A stretch of 64,000 nt of DNA from Escherichia coli (GTDB taxonomy: Bacteria; Pseudomonadota; Gammaproteobacteria; Enterobacterales; Enterobacteriaceae), in the NCBI RefSeq assembly GCF_044324875.1, contig NZ_CP172186.1; one strand, 5' to 3'. A program made the position numbers and the translations under genes. Each line of letters opens with the position of its first letter. The stretch's first letter is position 1. This document shows, one piece after another, positions 47,735 to 63,756 of this stretch. The notes beneath the pieces were generated by a model. The model worked only from the letters and a program-made list of their open reading frames with translations, made no database searches and had not been told where the DNA came from.

Positions 47735-48055
47735 TTATTTGGCATCCCTTATCTCGCCCATTAGCAGGCGGATACGCAGCCAGGTGTCATGATCCAGAAC
47801 AGGTGATGGTGTTACCATGCAAGCACAGTGCCCGATGGCGAGCGTATCAAGGAAGCGTTTTGCATCGCTGGCACTTTCATATTCACCAGTATGGATCAAC
47901 ATCCACCTTTGCCCCAACGCTGATTCGGTGTGAATTGGTTGCGAGAATGCGATTGTGTAAACGTCTTCAATTGTAACGATACGATTATTATCCGCAGTGG
48001 CTGCACGGGAGGATAAGTGTTTCATAAAGGGTCTCATAGCGTTAATTTTGAACAA
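47735..48055 (-). CDS. Hypothetical protein downstream of rci
   Basis: 106-aa ORF; no recognised domain. Confidence 0.35.
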   Translation of the reverse strand: MFKINAMRPFMKHLSSRAATADNNRIVTIEDVYTIAFSQPIHTESALGQRWMLIHTGEYESASDAKRFLDTLAIGHCACMVTPSPVLDHDTWLRIRLLMGEIRDAK

Positions 48056-48066
48056 AAATTATTTGT

Positions 48067-49236
48067 TCAGGAGGAGGATATGAAAATACTGTTCGCTTTT
48101 GTCATGAACTGGCTGTTTGTTAACGGACAAATCATGACCCGTTCATCAATGTTTGCGGGTAGCTCGCCTGGTGTGGGGACGCGTTCACCCCGCTGAGCAG
48201 CCTGGGCCAGTGCGCGCAGCAACAATACGCTGGCGTGAGATATTGCCAGTTCCCGGGTTTCAGCACGGCTTTCAAGGTCGAAATCGTGCAGTGTCACAAT
48301 GAACACTCCGTTTCTGTTTCTGACAGTTGCAGGGTAGGGAACAAAATAAGGGGAAATTTTGCTGGTCTGTTTACGCCTTGCATCGAGTTTACTGACCAGG
48401 TGATATGCCCGGAGATGTGTGTACCGTTTCAACATGTTCAGGGAGCGGTGACCGGAAATGGCTGCAATCTCCATAACGTTCAGTGTGCCGAGCTCGAACA
48501 GACGGCTGATGGCCTCATGGCGGAGATCGTGAAAATGCAGATTTTCTATTTTCAGATCCAGAAGAGCGGTACGCCAGGCGCTTTTGAAACCGGACGAGGT
48601 GTAATTGAACACATTGCCGTTTATCTGTTGTGGCAGAATTTGCAGGTAGTTACGTGCTTTCCGGGAGAGTGGTACGTCGCGTGGTGAGCCATTTTTCGTT
48701 TCAGGAAGATGCGCCACGCCGTGCTGCAAATCGAGGTGTTCCCAGCGTAATGAGAGAATTTCTCCCTGGCGCATTGCTGTTTCCAGAGCCAGATGGAAGA
48801 TAACGTAGAGCTGCGGATTTTTGTCCCTGAAATAGCGGGAAAGGCGGCGTTCTTCACCAGAAGTCAGTCGGCGGTCGCGGCCATTACTGATTTTCGGTTT
48901 TCGGACCAGTTCAACAGGATTCATACGGCATGTTCCCCATTCCACACGGGCGATATTGAATAATGATGATAAAAGGGCAAGTTCAAGACGGACGGTATTT
49001 CCGGTGATTTGACGCCCTGTTCGTGGGTTAATTTGAGCTAAACGCTGATCCCGGTAACCGGCGATATCAATGGTAGTGATTTCATCCATATAGCGCTCGG
49101 CCATAGGGTGACGTTTAATCACATTGACGCGATAAAACTCCTGCAGATGACCTTTTTTATGGACGGAAACGGTTTTCAGGTATTTGTCCAGCGCCCGGTT
49201 GAGAGTCATTTTGCGAATTTTGATTTTTCGAAACAT
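48067..49236 (-). CDS. rci: Shufflon-specific tyrosine recombinase Rci
   Basis: Tyrosine-recombinase C-terminus (HDLRHEAIS...[14 protein letters not shown]); adjacent to 19-bp repeats; start taken at MFRKIK since the ORF-track start overlaps a repeat. Confidence 0.85.
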
Positions 49237-49298
49237 ATCTGCCTTCCACGATAAAAACGGGGAAGGTAGGAATAGTGAAACGGAAATGCAATATCGCC

Positions 49299-51117
49299 GT
49301 GCCAATCCGGTTCGTGGATTAGGGTATCAGGTAGCACTGTTCTGACAGGAAAAATCGCAAATGGAGAACGACTACCTTTGCCGTCTGGTTTTTCTGCCAG
49401 CCAGTGTACCTGGAGCGTCAGCAATGCTGAAAACCCGCATGGCTGGAAGCCAAATTACTTCGCAGGTTCTGTTGCGACATATGATTCGAACAGGATTGTG
49501 AAGTGTGGTTACTACGATGAATACAATTTTCACGGCGGTACAAACAGGAACGACCTGACGGGGAAATGTAGTTACATTGTGGTTTGCCAGTAAATCACTT
49601 TGTCATTGGCAAATGGCATGTACAGTTATTTTTCCAATGATGTGTTCTGTCGTATCGCAATAGCCATACCAGGCATTATTGTTTACAGGTATTGAACGGA
49701 CAAGCCAGATAAAGCCAATTCCAGAGCTGCATTCTGCACCACCCCCGATCACCTTCTTACCCATTGGGCAGGTGGCAGTAGCACCAGGCCAGCGGAGTTT
49801 TGATGCTGTTACTTTGACGATTTCAATATCGCCTTTTCCTGCATTTTTCCACGAACCGGATTGGCACGGAGGCCAGTGCCAATCCGGTATCTGGACAACG
49901 ACAAAAATGAACTTCACTACCAGTACATACAATATCGGGAAAAATACTCGTAATCTGAGCATTGGCGTACATGCGTACTGCTCGTGGACATACCTTAATG
50001 GCTCGCCTTTTGGTGGTTTTCAGCAGATATACGCCGACCAAAACAAGGTTTGGTATGTGAATAATTATGCGTGGGGAAATTATGAGTCCGGTGGCACAAT
50101 TACAGTGACATGCCTCAACCTTCCTGGTGCCGGAATCTAACCAAAAGGGCAACAGTAAGCATCGACGTGCTCTTCATCAATACCATCTCCGATGCCGTAC
50201 ATTCTTGTACCTGTCATGACGTACCCGGCAGGGCACTGAATCGGCTTGTAATAAATAGAACCTCCACTTCTGCCACCGATAAAATGTGCGGAGGTCGCTT
50301 CATACCATTTACAGGCAGAATAGTTCACTTTATTGCCTCCAAGCCACAAACCGGATTGGCACTGGCCTCCGTGCCAATCCGGTGTGTGGGTTGGCTTTGA
50401 ATCCTACCCTGTGGGAAGCCCTATCCCGTGGCCATCTGCCACTCCTCCACAAGGCTATCTGTTGATGAACGGCCAGTCGTTTTCCTGTTCCCGGTATCCT
50501 CAGCTTGCCCGTGCTTATCCTGGCTGTAAATTGCCCGATCTGCGCGGTGTTTTTATCCGTGGCTGGGATAACGGGAAGGGACTTGATGGTGATCGGAACA
50601 GACAACTCCTGAGTTATCAGGCCGATCAATCAGGCGTCTATCACGAACGTGGCGGATGGCTGAAAGGGCATCATAGTGGTATGCCATACTGGGCACAGGG
50701 GAGTACCACAGAAATGCGTCCCAAAAATATTGCATTCAACTACATTGTTAAAGCCAGCTAGGGACTCACATCTGATAGGCATACACAGAGAAAACACCGT
50801 TACCACAGGCGTAATTTTGTGTTGGTCTGGAGATGATTTGATATGACGCTCCCACTGGCACGGCAAATGAAATAAATGCTGTCTTTCCGTAGGAGGGGTT
50901 ATTGCTGGCATTCATACCAATGAAAGCGCCGTTCACATAGCCCTGAAGATTTGATGTGTTGGCGCAATCACCGCCACCGGCACCATTTCCACCGGAAGCG
51001 TACACAAACAAAGTTCCTCTGCCGTTATTTCTCCCGTTAAATGTTCCCCGGTGAGAACCCAGATTGCTGTAACTTCCGTCAGGTGCACCAATCGTTCGCC
51101 ACACACCGGATTGGCAC
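49299..51117. repeat. PilV shufflon: six 19-bp repeats GTGCCAATCCGGTNNGTGG bounding three invertible segments with convergent alternative pilV 3' exons
   Basis: Repeats at 49299-49317(+), 49849-49867(-), 49876-49894(+), 50345-50363(-), 50371-50389(+), 51099-51117(-); overlapping ORFs on both strands. Confidence 0.85.
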
Positions 51118-54986: not shown

Positions 54987-56495
54987 TCAGTGCAGCAGCG
55001 TATAGCTGTCCTCGTCGATGGGAGAGATGTAATGGGCCGCCAGCGGATCAACCTGCCCGCTGTTGATTTTTCCCAGCAGATGCTGATTTCGTGTCATGCC
55101 GCCCAGCTCCCGGTGCCAGTATGTTCTGGCCTCAATACGCCCCTTTTCCCGGTACAACTGGAAAAAACGGGCATCCGGGGAGATGACTTCTGCGATCACC
55201 GTTCGTCCTGTCACGCCACGCCAGCAGTGCGGGCAGCCTTCATGATTTCGCAGATATACCTGGTCCGGGTTGCAGACGCTTTCCACCAGGTGCCGTTCAT
55301 CATCCGTGCGCTCGGTAGCCACCTCATGCCAGGGGCGACGGCAGTGCGGACATATCAGCTGAACCAGACGCTGGCTCAGCAGGCCAATGAACAGTTGCGG
55401 GTCGGCAATCATCCTGGCCTGTACCCCCTCCATCTCAAGACGTTCGAGGATGTTAATCGGGTCGTTCGCATGGATGGTGGTCAGCATCAGATGGCCGGTC
55501 ATGGCGGCTTTTATTGCCGTAATGGCGGAATCGTGGTCGCGGATTTCACCGTTCAGGATCCCGTCGGGGTCAAGACGCAGTGCCGATTTGATGGAGTCCA
55601 CCCAGCCCTGCGCGGTATCCATGACGGCGGTCTGAATGGCACCGGGAATACGCCCTTCCGGCGGGGATTCGATGGTGAACAGCCTGCGACGGGGAAGAAG
55701 AATATCGCCGGTGTTGTTGAAGCCGTACTGTTCAAGGTACGCCGCAGAGGCGGTTCTCAGCGTGGTGGATTTTCCTGAGCCGGTGGGGCCTGAGAGCGTG
55801 ATAATGCCTTCAGGGCGCTGCAGAATGCGGCGAAGAGTGCGCTCCTGGTCAGGGTGATAGCCCAGCATACTGAAGGTCGGGATTTGCTGACTGTCATCCT
55901 TGATCAGACGGAGCACAGCATATAGGCCGCCCACACAGGGGTAGTGGGAGTAGCGTGCACCAAACAGACCGGCCAGTTTCAGATACTGCTCTGAAAGACG
56001 TGCATCCTGAGGCACCCCGGGATCAAACTGTGTGCCCTTGATAACATCGGTCATGCCGGAATAGGTGGCCCCCAGTAATTCGAGGCCTTCTTCTTTCCGG
56101 AGGATATCGAGCACTTCCAGTTCGCCGTGAACCCGGGCTTCCACATAGGTGAAGTCCGTGTTGTCTCGTCCCGGGGTCATATGAAGGTCTGAGGCACCAA
56201 GAGAGGCAGAATGGCGGATATAGCCGAGCATTTTCTGCTGTACCGGGTTAATGACGCTTTCATCACCGGCGGTTGTGGTGTCCTGTCTGAGGCGGGCTAT
56301 CACATCCAGGGTGGTGAATTCAAAGTCTCCCACACGCCCCTGATGACGTGCGCGCAGGCGGGTCAGATATTCCTGGACGGCACGCAGATGTTTTTTTCCC
56401 TCCACGACCCTGACCCGCAGATGACCGGTTTTATCTGTGTCGATAGCCACATAATCCAGAATGTCATCCGGTGGCAGGTCTGCAGGCTCCAACAT
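54987..56495 (-). CDS. pilQ: PilQ pilus-assembly ATPase (GspE/PilB family)
   Basis: 502 aa, Walker A LSGPTGSGKSTT, tetracysteine motif. Confidence 0.85.
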   Translation of the reverse strand: MLEPADLPPDDILDYVAIDTDKTGHLRVRVVEGKKHLRAVQEYLTRLRARHQGRVGDFEFTTLDVIARLRQDTTTAGDESVINPVQQKMLGYIRHSASLGASDLHMTPGRDNTDFTYVEARVHGELEVLDILRKEEGLELLGATYSGMTDVIKGTQFDPGVPQDARLSEQYLKLAGLFGARYSHYPCVGGLYAVLRLIKDDSQQIPTFSMLGYHPDQERTLRRILQRPEGIITLSGPTGSGKSTTLRTASAAYLEQYGFNNTGDILLPRRRLFTIESPPEGRIPGAIQTAVMDTAQGWVDSIKSALRLDPDGILNGEIRDHDSAITAIKAAMTGHLMLTTIHANDPINILERLEMEGVQARMIADPQLFIGLLSQRLVQLICPHCRRPWHEVATERTDDERHLVESVCNPDQVYLRNHEGCPHCWRGVTGRTVIAEVISPDARFFQLYREKGRIEARTYWHRELGGMTRNQHLLGKINSGQVDPLAAHYISPIDEDSYTLLH

Positions 56496-56591
56496 AAGGC
56501 CTCCTTACGGGCAGCGGCGCCCGGAAAATATGTTTTCTGTTATTAAGCGAGGGAAATAATCAGTTCTTCTGCGGAGAGAATCTGGACATTT

Positions 56592-57266
56592 TCAGCACAG
56601 GCTTAACAGTGTAAAAATGATTACGCCTCCAAAAGCGAATAACAGGGGAATGTTTTTCTCCGGCTGTGTTGATCTCAGCGTTAATACCGGTGTGGCGAGA
56701 GCGTAAAAAATAATACCTGCGGTATAAATAAAATAAGGTGTGATGCCGGACAGATTACATACACTGGCGAATATCATAAGCATGACGGCAACTACCGATA
56801 AAATAATGGAAGTATTCTTCCATTCACCAGATGGTGTAAGTGAAATGATATCGCCATCCTGTTTATAGTTCGTGTTCAGCTTCAGGAAATGACGGATATC
56901 TTTCAGCGTGTTCAGTTTCTGCTGGATATCTTCCACAAGTTCCTGTCTGTCGGTTTTTTCACGGAGCAGCTGGAATTTTGTCTCCCTCAGTACAGATATA
57001 ATACGGTCCACCTGGCCGGGGGAGGGATAGTAATGATGTTCGAGCATCCACCGGATATCGGCGATTAACCGGTCAGTTACCGGTGTATTACCGTTGTTAA
57101 TGAGAGGTGTTTCGTGCATCCACTGAAATATGCGGTAGATATGTTGCTTAACAAAAATAAAATCATCGGTGGTTTTATTCTCCAGCATGAGATATATCCC
57201 GTCGAGTGTTAATAATAAAACGTCCCGGGTGTGAGGTGATTTGTGATGTATTGTACGGAATATCAT
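56592..57266 (-). CDS. Hypothetical membrane protein (soluble N-domain, 3 C-terminal TM), AT-rich
   Basis: 224-aa ORF between pilP-like gene and pilQ. Confidence 0.4.
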   Translation of the reverse strand: MIFRTIHHKSPHTRDVLLLTLDGIYLMLENKTTDDFIFVKQHIYRIFQWMHETPLINNGNTPVTDRLIADIRWMLEHHYYPSPGQVDRIISVLRETKFQLLREKTDRQELVEDIQQKLNTLKDIRHFLKLNTNYKQDGDIISLTPSGEWKNTSIILSVVAVMLMIFASVCNLSGITPYFIYTAGIIFYALATPVLTLRSTQPEKNIPLLFAFGGVIIFTLLSLC

Positions 57267-57283
57267 TTCTGCACTGTAATCGT

Positions 57284-57838
57284 TTACGCAGGTGATATAT
57301 CACACCAGAGTAAATACAGCGGAATGAAGCTGTAGAGTGACCAGAAAAGCCCGAGGGGATCTTTTGCCCACAGGCATAAGAATGTCAGTCCGGTGCACCA
57401 TGCGCCGGCAAGTGCCGCGCATAATTCAGCGCCTCCGGAATTGCCGCTCTTCATCATATAACAGAGCGCGATCAGCAGTGGGATAATGAAGACGAGCGGC
57501 AGGACAAAGGATTCGGCTGCGGATATCCATTCCCGGTAACGCCAGCGGTCGTTTAATCTGTCGGCATCATATTTCAGACAGTTGCTCAGGAACGCCAGAT
57601 CGTTCATGAGGGGGGCGTCCTGGCCATACTGCGCCGCGAGGCGCATTCTGGCACCCCACAACCGGGCACTCAGGGCACGGAGTTGTGCCGGGGTGACCTG
57701 TTTTCCCCGACAAAGTTGTACCTGTAATTGTGTTGCCTCGTGGACAATATCTGTGTGGTTCACCCCATATTCTGCAGCGGCTGTTTCCAGGTCACGGATG
57801 ATCAGGCTGAGCCAGGATATCAGTTCACTGATGTTCAT
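57284..57838 (-). CDS. Hypothetical membrane protein (soluble N-domain, 2 C-terminal TM)
   Basis: 184-aa ORF between pilP-like gene and pilQ. Confidence 0.4.
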   Translation of the reverse strand: MNISELISWLSLIIRDLETAAAEYGVNHTDIVHEATQLQVQLCRGKQVTPAQLRALSARLWGARMRLAAQYGQDAPLMNDLAFLSNCLKYDADRLNDRWRYREWISAAESFVLPLVFIIPLLIALCYMMKSGNSGGAELCAALAGAWCTGLTFLCLWAKDPLGLFWSLYSFIPLYLLWCDISPA

Positions 57839-57886
57839 TGTCGTTCATCCTTTTGTACGGACAGCCGCCTGTACTGGCGGCCGGTT

Positions 57887-58339
57887 TCATGGTCGCAGGG
57901 TTTTTCTGATGCCGGACTGCTCCAGTACCACACTGTCCGGTGTGATTTTCTCCACGAGATAAGGGGTTCCGGGGATGTTCTGGCCCGTCTTCACATCGGT
58001 GATGTGTCCACCCGAAAGTTCTATCCGGGCGCTCAGCTGAGGCTGTACACCAAATATTTCTGTCAGACGGGGGGATGTCGCCGTCGACGGGGCAGTCGGG
58101 ATGGCGGACGTGCTTTCCTGCGGACGACCGGGCTCTGCGGGAATACCCTGCTCCAGCATGCGCAGTTCATGACGGATTTTCTCTCTCGCCAGCATGGCTT
58201 CATACAGGGCTGTTTCGTCCTGTATCCGCTCAATCTGCAGTTGCCGGGGACTCTGTTCCTCTGCGTTTCCGGTTGTGGCCATTGCCGTTGCCGGTAACAG
58301 CAGCGCTGAAACCAGAAGGGCTTTTGTTTTAGCGTGCAT
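57887..58339 (-). CDS. PilP-position periplasmic protein
   Basis: 150 aa with signal peptide; downstream of pilO. Confidence 0.5.
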   Translation of the reverse strand: MHAKTKALLVSALLLPATAMATTGNAEEQSPRQLQIERIQDETALYEAMLAREKIRHELRMLEQGIPAEPGRPQESTSAIPTAPSTATSPRLTEIFGVQPQLSARIELSGGHITDVKTGQNIPGTPYLVEKITPDSVVLEQSGIRKTLRP

Positions 58340-62928: not shown

Positions 62929-63324
62929 ATGATAAAGAAGATGTGGCGTTATTTACGGCAAATTGATAAGTATGAATTGCTGCAGCAGGTGATTTCAGTA
63001 CATGAAGTGGAACTGCTCAGGAAAATGATGACAGATTCATTATTAGGGTGCTCAGTAGGATATGTGTTTTCGAAAATACTGAAGATATCCTTTCTGCGTT
63101 TTATTCAGTCTGAGGGGGGATGGGATATTATTACTTACTTTTTGTGGATGCTGGGAATGCTTATTGTCATGGCCGTGCTGTTTATCTGGATGTGCGCCGC
63201 TGTATGCTATGAGCTTCGGATGTATAAAATAAAAACAGGAAGGGAGAACGATATATTATTCTGGGTGTGGATTCTTCTTTTTGATGTCGCGGTTGTATTT
63301 TCGCTGGGTAATGTTATCTGGTGA
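62929..63324 (+). CDS. Hypothetical membrane protein, AT-rich
   Basis: 131 aa, 3 TM helices. Confidence 0.35.
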   Translation: MIKKMWRYLRQIDKYELLQQVISVHEVELLRKMMTDSLLGCSVGYVFSKILKISFLRFIQSEGGWDIITYFLWMLGMLIVMAVLFIWMCAAVCYELRMYKIKTGRENDILFWVWILLFDVAVVFSLGNVIW

Positions 63325-63756
63325 TTATGGGTTCAGTGACATATGGAAAAAGATAAGTGCGAACATTGATACTGAAGAATAATATATCCAGGAATAGAAA
63401 AACATGAATTTCGGAGATGGTTTCTTCTGTCTCCTGTTTTTCAGGGGAGTCTGTGGGTCAAATGTTATCAGCGTCATTAAAGGATACCCTTTCATAAGAA
63501 TAAAAATATAGACGCATAAATGAGCGTAAAGAGGTAACCTGTCCTGCCAGAACAGAATCATCATGATGACGGCAAGATGAAATGTCGTTACATTGATATA
63601 ATAAAACCAGCTGTATTTACGCAGATACTGTTGGATATTCACGCTGTCAGCATGCGGTTCTGGTGAACAATTTATGCAAAAACAGAAGAAAGAAATGATG
63701 ATGAACACGGTCAGAGTGACCGGTAATACAGTCACAAGCAGAAAGAGTATGGACAT
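63325..63756 (-). CDS. Hypothetical membrane protein, AT-rich
   Basis: 143 aa, 4 TM helices; convergent with previous ORF. Confidence 0.35.
   Translation of the reverse strand: MSILFLLVTVLPVTLTVFIIISFFCFCINCSPEPHADSVNIQQYLRKYSWFYYINVTTFHLAVIMMILFWQDRLPLYAHLCVYIFILMKGYPLMTLITFDPQTPLKNRRQKKPSPKFMFFYSWIYYSSVSMFALIFFHMSLNP

Follow-up and report, generated by a model that had tools for sequence, protein, structure and literature searches.

The tra operon of plasmid F carries small membrane proteins (TraP, TrbI, TrbE/F/J) and the antisense gene artA among its essential tra genes, and the corresponding mutant phenotypes are subtle or absent. Exclusion proteins, i.e., TraS/TraT of F, ExcA of the IncI plasmids and Eex of SXT, are small, fast-evolving envelope proteins that are encoded within transfer operons and are dispensable for transfer; the known ones are specific to the cognate machine (TraG or TraY). 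The IncI1 plasmid R64 encodes PilK, which is reportedly required for its thin pilus (Yoshida 1999 and Sakai & Komano 2002, cited in PMC10286972), and TraD, a small membrane protein from the traABCD region. Here we analysed two genes, A and B, located between pilP and pilQ in a 64,000-nucleotide (nt) stretch of Escherichia coli DNA from contig NZ_CP172186.1 (hereafter, the window). We conclude that A and B very probably constitute a portable accessory cassette inserted in the thin-pilus operon of an IncK2 plasmid, not core pilus genes, and that they encode distant paralogues, each with a predicted cytoplasmic four-helix N-terminal domain anchored by two or three C-terminal inner-membrane helices.

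The locus shares traits with each of these systems. Like the F genes, the cassette consists of small membrane proteins placed among essential tra genes, and its third gene, C, which is missing from the window, lies on the opposite strand, as does artA. The non-essential F genes, however, are fixed in one operon type, whereas the A/B cassette is mobile between operon types; no homology of the cassette to its tra-operon neighbours was detected in the loci examined. A and B resemble the exclusion proteins in size, evolutionary rate, dispensability and placement, but they have no sequence or profile similarity to them, and the cassette occupies three unrelated machines.

The window contains the thin-pilus operon within the transfer region of an E. 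coli IncK2 plasmid. We made this assignment because a 2-kb query across A/B matched ~ 110 E. coli plasmids, and a few from Salmonella, Shigella and Klebsiella, with 99.7–99.9% identity; the ~ 110 near-identical plasmids are typed IncK2/Z, MOBP and MPF_I, and many have a chicken source. Both reading frames are intact in > 110 plasmids, and RefSeq labels A and B ‘hypothetical protein’ in > 100 near-identical IncK2 plasmids. The earlier note, made from the letters of the window alone, had reported two open reading frames (ORFs) of 184 and 224 amino acids (aa) between pilP and pilQ, and both were confirmed, co-oriented on the minus strand, at the following positions:

57284–57838, minus strand: gene A, 184 aa (RefSeq CDS WP_089581189), characterised by its ORF, a 15-member alignment, an AlphaFold2 model, hydropathy and the ratio of nonsynonymous to synonymous substitution rates (dN/dS)
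56592–57188, minus strand: gene B, 198 aa, starting with MLENK, a distant paralogue of A

The size of the first ORF stood, while that of the second did not. The start of B is MLENK at 57188 in RefSeq and in all homologues, meaning that the 224-aa ORF (from 57266) was over-extended; the upstream ATG at 57266 reads ACA in L004 (here and below, L numbers are our locus labels), a 90%-identical variant. The soluble N-terminal domain and C-terminal transmembrane (TM) helices that the earlier note had described for each product were found in the AlphaFold2 model and in the hydropathy profiles. Its remark that the second gene is more AT-rich than its neighbours was correct relative to pilL–pilQ and A (GC content of 0.43 in B vs 0.54–0.60), but the property is not unique to B, as pilS and pilT also have 0.43.

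The most informative data came from the genomic contexts of the homologues whose neighbourhoods were read, to which all context statements refer. Every copy was inside a conjugative transfer operon and always comprised an A...B pair, usually with the opposite-strand gene C in between. Copies at the traU|trbC position of F-type type IV secretion system (T4SS) operons were found in Salmonella, E. coli, several Klebsiella species, Hafnia paralvei and metagenomic contigs, with A 22–41% identical to that of the window. Salmonella diarizonae p28NP2 carries a copy just upstream of traH-traI-traJ in an I-type (Dot/Icm-like) T4SS operon, with C intact and unannotated. In an E. coli chromosomal integrative and conjugative element (ICE) with a TraI_2 relaxase, the cassette is located at pilO|pilP, and A and B are 66% and 77% identical to those of the window, respectively. 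The IncK2 copy, at pilP|pilQ, has no C. Comparison with L006, L009, L011, L023, L027, L029, L030, L037 and L038 gave the ancestral arrangement A-> <-C B->, in which ~ 700 nt encoding C are present where the window has a 95-nt spacer. Among PLSDB records, 206 contain A, of which 203 are typed conjugative, and 85 contain C; F-like plasmids with the cassette account for ~ 90 of the PLSDB records and are a minority of their kind. A set of 100,044 species-representative genomes yielded two loci, both at traU|trbC. The A/B family is very small and confined to Enterobacterales: a search of 1.84 billion proteins gave 23 representatives at E ≤ 1e-3, and a 5.8-billion set contained 14 and 20 clusters.

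Neighbour-joining trees of A and B were congruent, and within the F-type diversity the two pil-borne versions grouped together in a single shallow clade. F-type traU|trbC is probably the original home of the cassette, since the most diverse set of copies is found there. In the simplest history, the cassette would have arisen in F-type operons and moved once into those of type IVb pili (pilO|pilP of the ICE and pilP|pilQ of IncK2), before C was lost in IncK2. C was also lost independently in a Salmonella F-like lineage. Moreover, it is frameshifted, with A and B intact, in some ICE copies (L007/L008, 8512–9337) and in E. coli F-like plasmids (L014/L015, 6279–7093; L028, 4528–5342); in the latter plasmids, B is shortened to 148 aa. 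The GC content across the cassette contexts was 0.47–0.54 for A, 0.40–0.44 for B and 0.34–0.41 for C, and the gradient A > B > C was present everywhere we examined. A separate, later acquisition of an AT-rich B was rejected on the basis of this constant gradient and the congruent trees. The traU|trbC gap of F-like plasmids behaves as an accessory-gene hotspot. Further small unannotated or hypothetical ORFs are located in it (L009, 9963–10253; L014, 8288–8821; L016, 8005–8523; L028, 5869–6284).

In reference operons, pilP is followed directly by pilQ, with 10 nt between them in R64 and in ColIb-P9 and 102 nt in pCT (IncK1). The same order was observed in IncI2, in two other K/B/O/Z-type plasmids and in Erwinia and Serratia plasmids, and none of these operons has an A/B homologue at pilP|pilQ. 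The canonical gene order given in the earlier note was thus verified in R64, ColIb-P9 and the other references, and in none of the operons examined did both genes occur at this position. The cassette-free relatives (pCT and other K/B/O/Z plasmids) retain complete pil operons, and A and B are dispensable across relatives.

Sister plasmids were informative about the insertion site itself. In the K2/Z-typed pSTEC2018_607-b (L002, 4047–4826), a 72-aa remnant of A precedes a RelE/ParE pair that is encoded on the opposite strand at pilP|pilQ, whereas in L003 (4043–4537) a truncated A is joined through a large deletion to traY/excA. L020 (3953–4038) has an empty site, in which the ribosome-binding segment of A (AAAGGATGAA-GACA) is fused to the pilQ leader (TATTTTCCGGG); this looks like a precise deletion over an ACA microhomology. 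The same ribosome-binding segment is missing from the more distant B/O/K1-type pilP|pilQ gap. The gap is a variable cargo site in K2/Z-typed plasmids, as the RelE/ParE pair occupies the identical slot beside an A remnant. In pSTEC2018_607-b and its relatives, this pair, unlike A/B, belongs to an unrelated family, is encoded on the opposite strand and consists of soluble proteins. Of the two interpretations offered in the earlier note, an inserted cargo pair is supported, because A and B are absent from all reference pil operons examined, are common to F-type tra, I-type T4SS and ICE pil operons, and are replaced in sister plasmids by a scarred empty site or other cargo. Lineage-specific pil accessory genes, the other interpretation, are disfavoured, given that the diversity resides in F-type systems without a type IV pilus and that close relatives lack the cassette.

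The operon occupies 50–63 kb of the window on the minus strand, in the order pilL-pilM-pilN-pilO-pilP, A, B, pilQ-pilR-pilS-pilT-pilU-pilV and shufflon segments. The surroundings of A and B are as follows:

57189–57283, minus strand: A–B spacer, 95 nt, from which gene C is missing
57839–57886, minus strand: left junction, with a stem-loop and the ribosome-binding region of A (AAGGA at 57848–57852)
56496–56591, minus strand: right junction, 96 nt from the B stop to the pilQ start
57887–58339, minus strand: pilP, the core gene flanking upstream
54987–56495, minus strand: pilQ (GspE-family ATPase), the core gene flanking downstream

The GC-rich stem-loop (GCCGCC-loop-GGCGGC, ~ 57861–57884, minus strand) is directly 3′ of the pilP stop, has no T-run and is also kept in cassette-free plasmids; it may serve to stabilise the mRNA or to attenuate transcription. 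The segment 5′ of A moves as part of the cassette, and the ICE copy has its homologue (blastn, window 57890–57297 vs L006 7928–8540). The stretches common to the window and the ICE copy comprise ~ 50–70 nt 5′ of A and ~ 90 nt 3′ of B. The final ~ 40 nt of the right junction (TATTTTCCGGG...AGGAGG) are the native pilQ leader, which is found in empty sites too. No transposon-like ends were detected, with flanking inverted or direct repeats absent around the A/B insert and only microhomology at the deletion scar.

Elsewhere in the window, the stretch downstream of pilV (48000–50760), which is densely filled with overlapping ORFs in both orientations and has repeated peptide motifs, corresponds to the shufflon segments and the rci recombinase region expected of an I-complex plasmid. 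Two AT-rich (GC ~ 0.37–0.40) multi-TM ORFs are located immediately upstream of pilL, at 62929–63324 (plus strand) and 63325–63756 (minus strand). This position is taken by pilJ and pilK in R64 and ColIb-P9, and by a gene for a 106–111-aa soluble, Cys-rich hypothetical protein in the K1/B/O/Z relatives. No homologue of C, PilK or PilJ was found anywhere in the window. The pil operon of another sister plasmid (L032, NZ_OZ043765.1, 2116–4457) has a further membrane-related cargo pair at its head, between a traC-like gene and pilI; it consists of a flotillin-family gene and an NfeD-like gene with an oligonucleotide/oligosaccharide-binding (OB) fold.

Proteins A and B each consist of a helical N-terminal domain of ~ 105–125 aa followed by hydrophobic C-terminal helices. 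The predicted four-helix N-terminal domain of A (~ residues 1–100) contains the motifs GKxVTPAQ, RMR and RWxYREW, and its membrane helices span ~ 111–129, 139–157 and 161–181, with the motif WAKDP...LFWSLYSFIPLY. In B, the helical domain bears the motifs WMLxHxYYPSPxQVD and LKDIRxFL and precedes three membrane helices. Hydropathy analysis showed three clear membrane segments in B, and two clear segments and an aromatic-rich one in A. An AlphaFold2 model of an A-linker-B fusion (paired alignment of 20 rows) had four N-terminal and three C-terminal helices per protein, with a mean predicted local distance difference test (pLDDT) score of 70. Neither protein has a signal peptide and the flanking charges are compatible with an N-in orientation, so the helical domains are probably cytoplasmic.

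The relationship between A and B is visible to profile methods only. BLASTP of A against B gave no match, whereas hhalign aligned them over 141 columns (98.7%, E 2e-16) and the family hidden Markov models (HMMs) matched each other reciprocally. These profile comparisons indicate that A and B are distant paralogues. All the family features are present in the window: the [GK]-x-x-P-[ST]-P-x-Q motif region in the helical N-terminal domain, the C-terminal membrane helices and an adjacent, co-oriented pair inside a transfer operon. The full length of both proteins is maintained across hosts at identities as low as 22–40%, and some motifs are invariant; shortened variants (A of 107 aa, B of 148 aa) are nevertheless common in other replicons. 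Comparison of the window with L004 gave dN/dS values of 0.53 (A), 0.28 (B), 0.30 (PilP) and 0.06 (PilQ); in other pairs, the ratio was 0.5–0.6 for A and 0.24–0.38 for B. With values below 1, A and B are genuine coding genes, under selection that is purifying but relaxed, or partly diversifying. Such a relaxed purifying pattern is typical for accessory genes.

No characterised relative of A or B was found. Pfam, NCBIfam, PADLOC and PHROGs gave only noise for A, B and C; none of the 29 A/B family members had a Pfam or NCBIfam match above noise, and PADLOC assigned no family to A, B or four C proteins. There were no A/B/C homologues in the phage collection. PDB sequence profiles matched A/B only to designed helical repeats, and Foldseek against the PDB found nothing below E = 1, listing generic four-helix bundles (Csp1, PA2107, PedB). 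In AFDB50, only ‘uncharacterized protein’ members of the family were retrieved, from E. coli, Salmonella, Klebsiella and Erwinia. The profile searches proposed in the earlier note showed no similarity of A/B to ExcA, TraS, toxin–antitoxin or defence families. The A- and B-family HMMs did not match the R64 transfer region (85–120.8 kb), and A as a PilJ homologue was ruled out (hhalign 0.2%). Full-text literature searches by gene position, IncK2 pil locus and protein accessions found no description of A/B. The IncK2 genomics paper describes the core merely as containing ‘several hypothetical genes’, and A/B are not mentioned in the main text of the I-complex transposon-directed insertion-site sequencing (TraDIS) paper.

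Gene C encodes a 3-TM protein with a cytoplasmic alpha/beta domain, antisense to the operon. It has the same size and layout as R64 PilK and TraD, that is, N-terminal membrane helices and a ~ 110-aa cytoplasmic domain, and all three are encoded in conjugative transfer regions. They also have in common a conserved segment, ‘I-x-x-x-SHL[LF]...L...G[IL]’. The homology is weak: the C-family HMM scored TraD at 17.8 bits (E 5e-4 of 4173 segments) and PilK at 6.0 bits, a score equalled or exceeded by 15 of 2000 shuffles, and the hhalign match of C to PilK/TraD reached 61% (E 8e-5, 49 columns). From these similarities, C is probably related to both R64 proteins. PilK and TraD are in turn paralogous to each other (BLASTP E 6e-15, 27% over 180 aa; L031, 30693–31283 and 32350–32916), and neither has a Pfam or NCBIfam family. 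C differs from them in its antisense orientation and its absence from the window, and A and B resemble neither.

The insertion of a portable cassette of paralogous membrane proteins is, in our view, the best overall explanation of the locus, and a fairly probable one. As A and B are co-oriented and tightly packed between pilP and pilQ, with no convincing terminator, they would probably be made only during transfer-gene expression. Their constant co-occurrence and congruent trees suggest that they act as a hetero-oligomer, which we find reasonably likely. As the module is dispensable, evolves fast and is found in three machines whose mechanisms are unrelated, we tentatively favour a machine-independent role. 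Its portability may point to a protective or ‘conflict’ role in the mating-competent cell and not in pilus assembly; a module that suits the F-type T4SS, the I-type T4SS and the type IVb pilus alike is unlikely to contact a specific machine part. The presumed site of action of A and B is the cytoplasmic face of the inner membrane, where they might, e.g., block unwanted entry of DNA or pilus-specific phage in an exclusion- or immunity-like manner. More speculatively, and with considerable doubt, A, B and C could form a previously unrecognised machine-independent conjugation accessory system that can be fitted into the operons of an F-type T4SS, an I-type T4SS or a type IVb pilus, and that gates or senses a mating-associated event at the same membrane face (entry of foreign DNA or pilus phage, or envelope or sigma-32 stress from the machine).

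We must also note the points that weigh against this interpretation. The fusion model had a predicted template modelling (pTM) score of 0.44, from which A–B contact is undecidable. The promoter and terminator scan was not decisive, and co-transcription with the pil genes is read from the layout. What speaks for a protective or exclusion role is portability, dispensability and evolutionary rate; homology points to no particular function. IncK2 plasmids, as seen in relatives, already carry ExcA/TraY exclusion, and a second exclusion function would need another target. Moreover, all the predicted soluble domains are cytoplasmic, unlike what would be expected for a block at the cell surface. Finally, the probable kinship of C with PilK, suggested by their shared segment, points to an assembly or regulatory role.

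A rival proposal is that A/B, with C where present, are lineage-specific inner-membrane factors of assembly or dynamics, tuning the extension, retraction or stability of the filament and, in IncK2, replacing the missing PilJ/PilK. The IncK2 window indeed lacks the PilJ/PilK homologues present upstream of pilL in R64 and ColIb-P9, C resembles R64 PilK/TraD in a ~ 50-residue ‘SHLL’ segment and in overall architecture, and the cassette is placed within the operons of pili and T4SSs, where in IncK2 it immediately precedes the ATPase gene. Several small inner-membrane modulators that are not essential, among them TraP and TrbI, are also present in the F tra operon. Nevertheless, pCT and other K/B/O/Z plasmids have complete pil operons with neither the cassette nor PilK, the PilK-like C is precisely what IncK2 lost, and A and B match nothing in the R64 transfer region. 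A specific structural role is also hard to square with the F-type T4SS, the I-type T4SS and the type IVb pilus, or with frequent pseudogenisation and truncation, and we consider this proposal unlikely. Quite unlikely, too, is that the genes are left over from a selfish toxin-immunity (addiction) or abortive-infection module, with C as a membrane-anchored toxic effector and A/B as membrane-bound neutralisers orphaned in IncK2. The convergent, AT-rich C (GC 0.34–0.41) is repeatedly frameshifted or deleted while A/B stay intact, as with orphan antitoxin or immunity genes; the RelE/ParE pair at the same slot in sister plasmids and the elevated dN/dS would fit as well. Yet A, B and C have no PADLOC, Pfam or NCBIfam match and no phage homologues, plain addiction leaves the strict confinement to transfer operons unexplained, and a repressible transfer promoter would make A/B a poor constitutive antidote. 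Purifying selection on A/B also persists where C is gone (window vs L004).

The predicted cytoplasmic four-helix domain with its membrane anchor would also suit membrane-tethered regulators, whose helical bundles sequester a cytoplasmic factor in an anti-sigma-like manner and so couple transfer-machinery expression to the host stress response or to transfer-gene control. At the head of the R64 transfer region, the gene for TraD, the probable C relative, adjoins traC and the NusG-family regulator gene. IncK2, but not IncK1, was reported to raise sigma-32 levels in a conjugation-dependent manner (PMC6803427), and the cassette is one gene-content difference between their transfer regions. However, the sigma-32 link is a correlation between lineages that differ at many loci, and A/B resemble no anti-sigma or regulator family in sequence or fold, which leaves this role improbable. 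That A and B are simply decaying, non-functional ORFs would accord with the loss of C and with the truncated A (107 aa) and B (148 aa) of other replicons, but it is at odds with two ORFs intact in > 110 plasmids, with full length kept at 22–40% identity, with dN/dS < 1 and with invariant motifs, and we regard it as extremely improbable.

New here are the A/B paralogy, the 2–3-gene cassette, its movement between the transfer operons of unrelated machines and the reduced, C-less IncK2 version; the analysis also ties together as paralogues two unexplained R64 genes, pilK and traD. Accessory genes in transfer operons are usually regarded as private to one system, whereas this one module has spread among three types of conjugation machine with unrelated mechanisms, in E. 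coli, Salmonella, Klebsiella and Hafnia. This raises the question of what a membrane-tethered helical pair does for a mating-competent cell whatever the machine, be it exclusion, protection from pilus phage, stress buffering or regulation. IncK2 plasmids, which are major vehicles for blaCMY-2 in poultry and also reach humans, bear this lineage-specific cassette in the middle of the mating-pilus operon. If A, B and C do form a machine-independent system, it might contribute to the conjugation and stress phenotype that is specific to IncK2 as opposed to IncK1.

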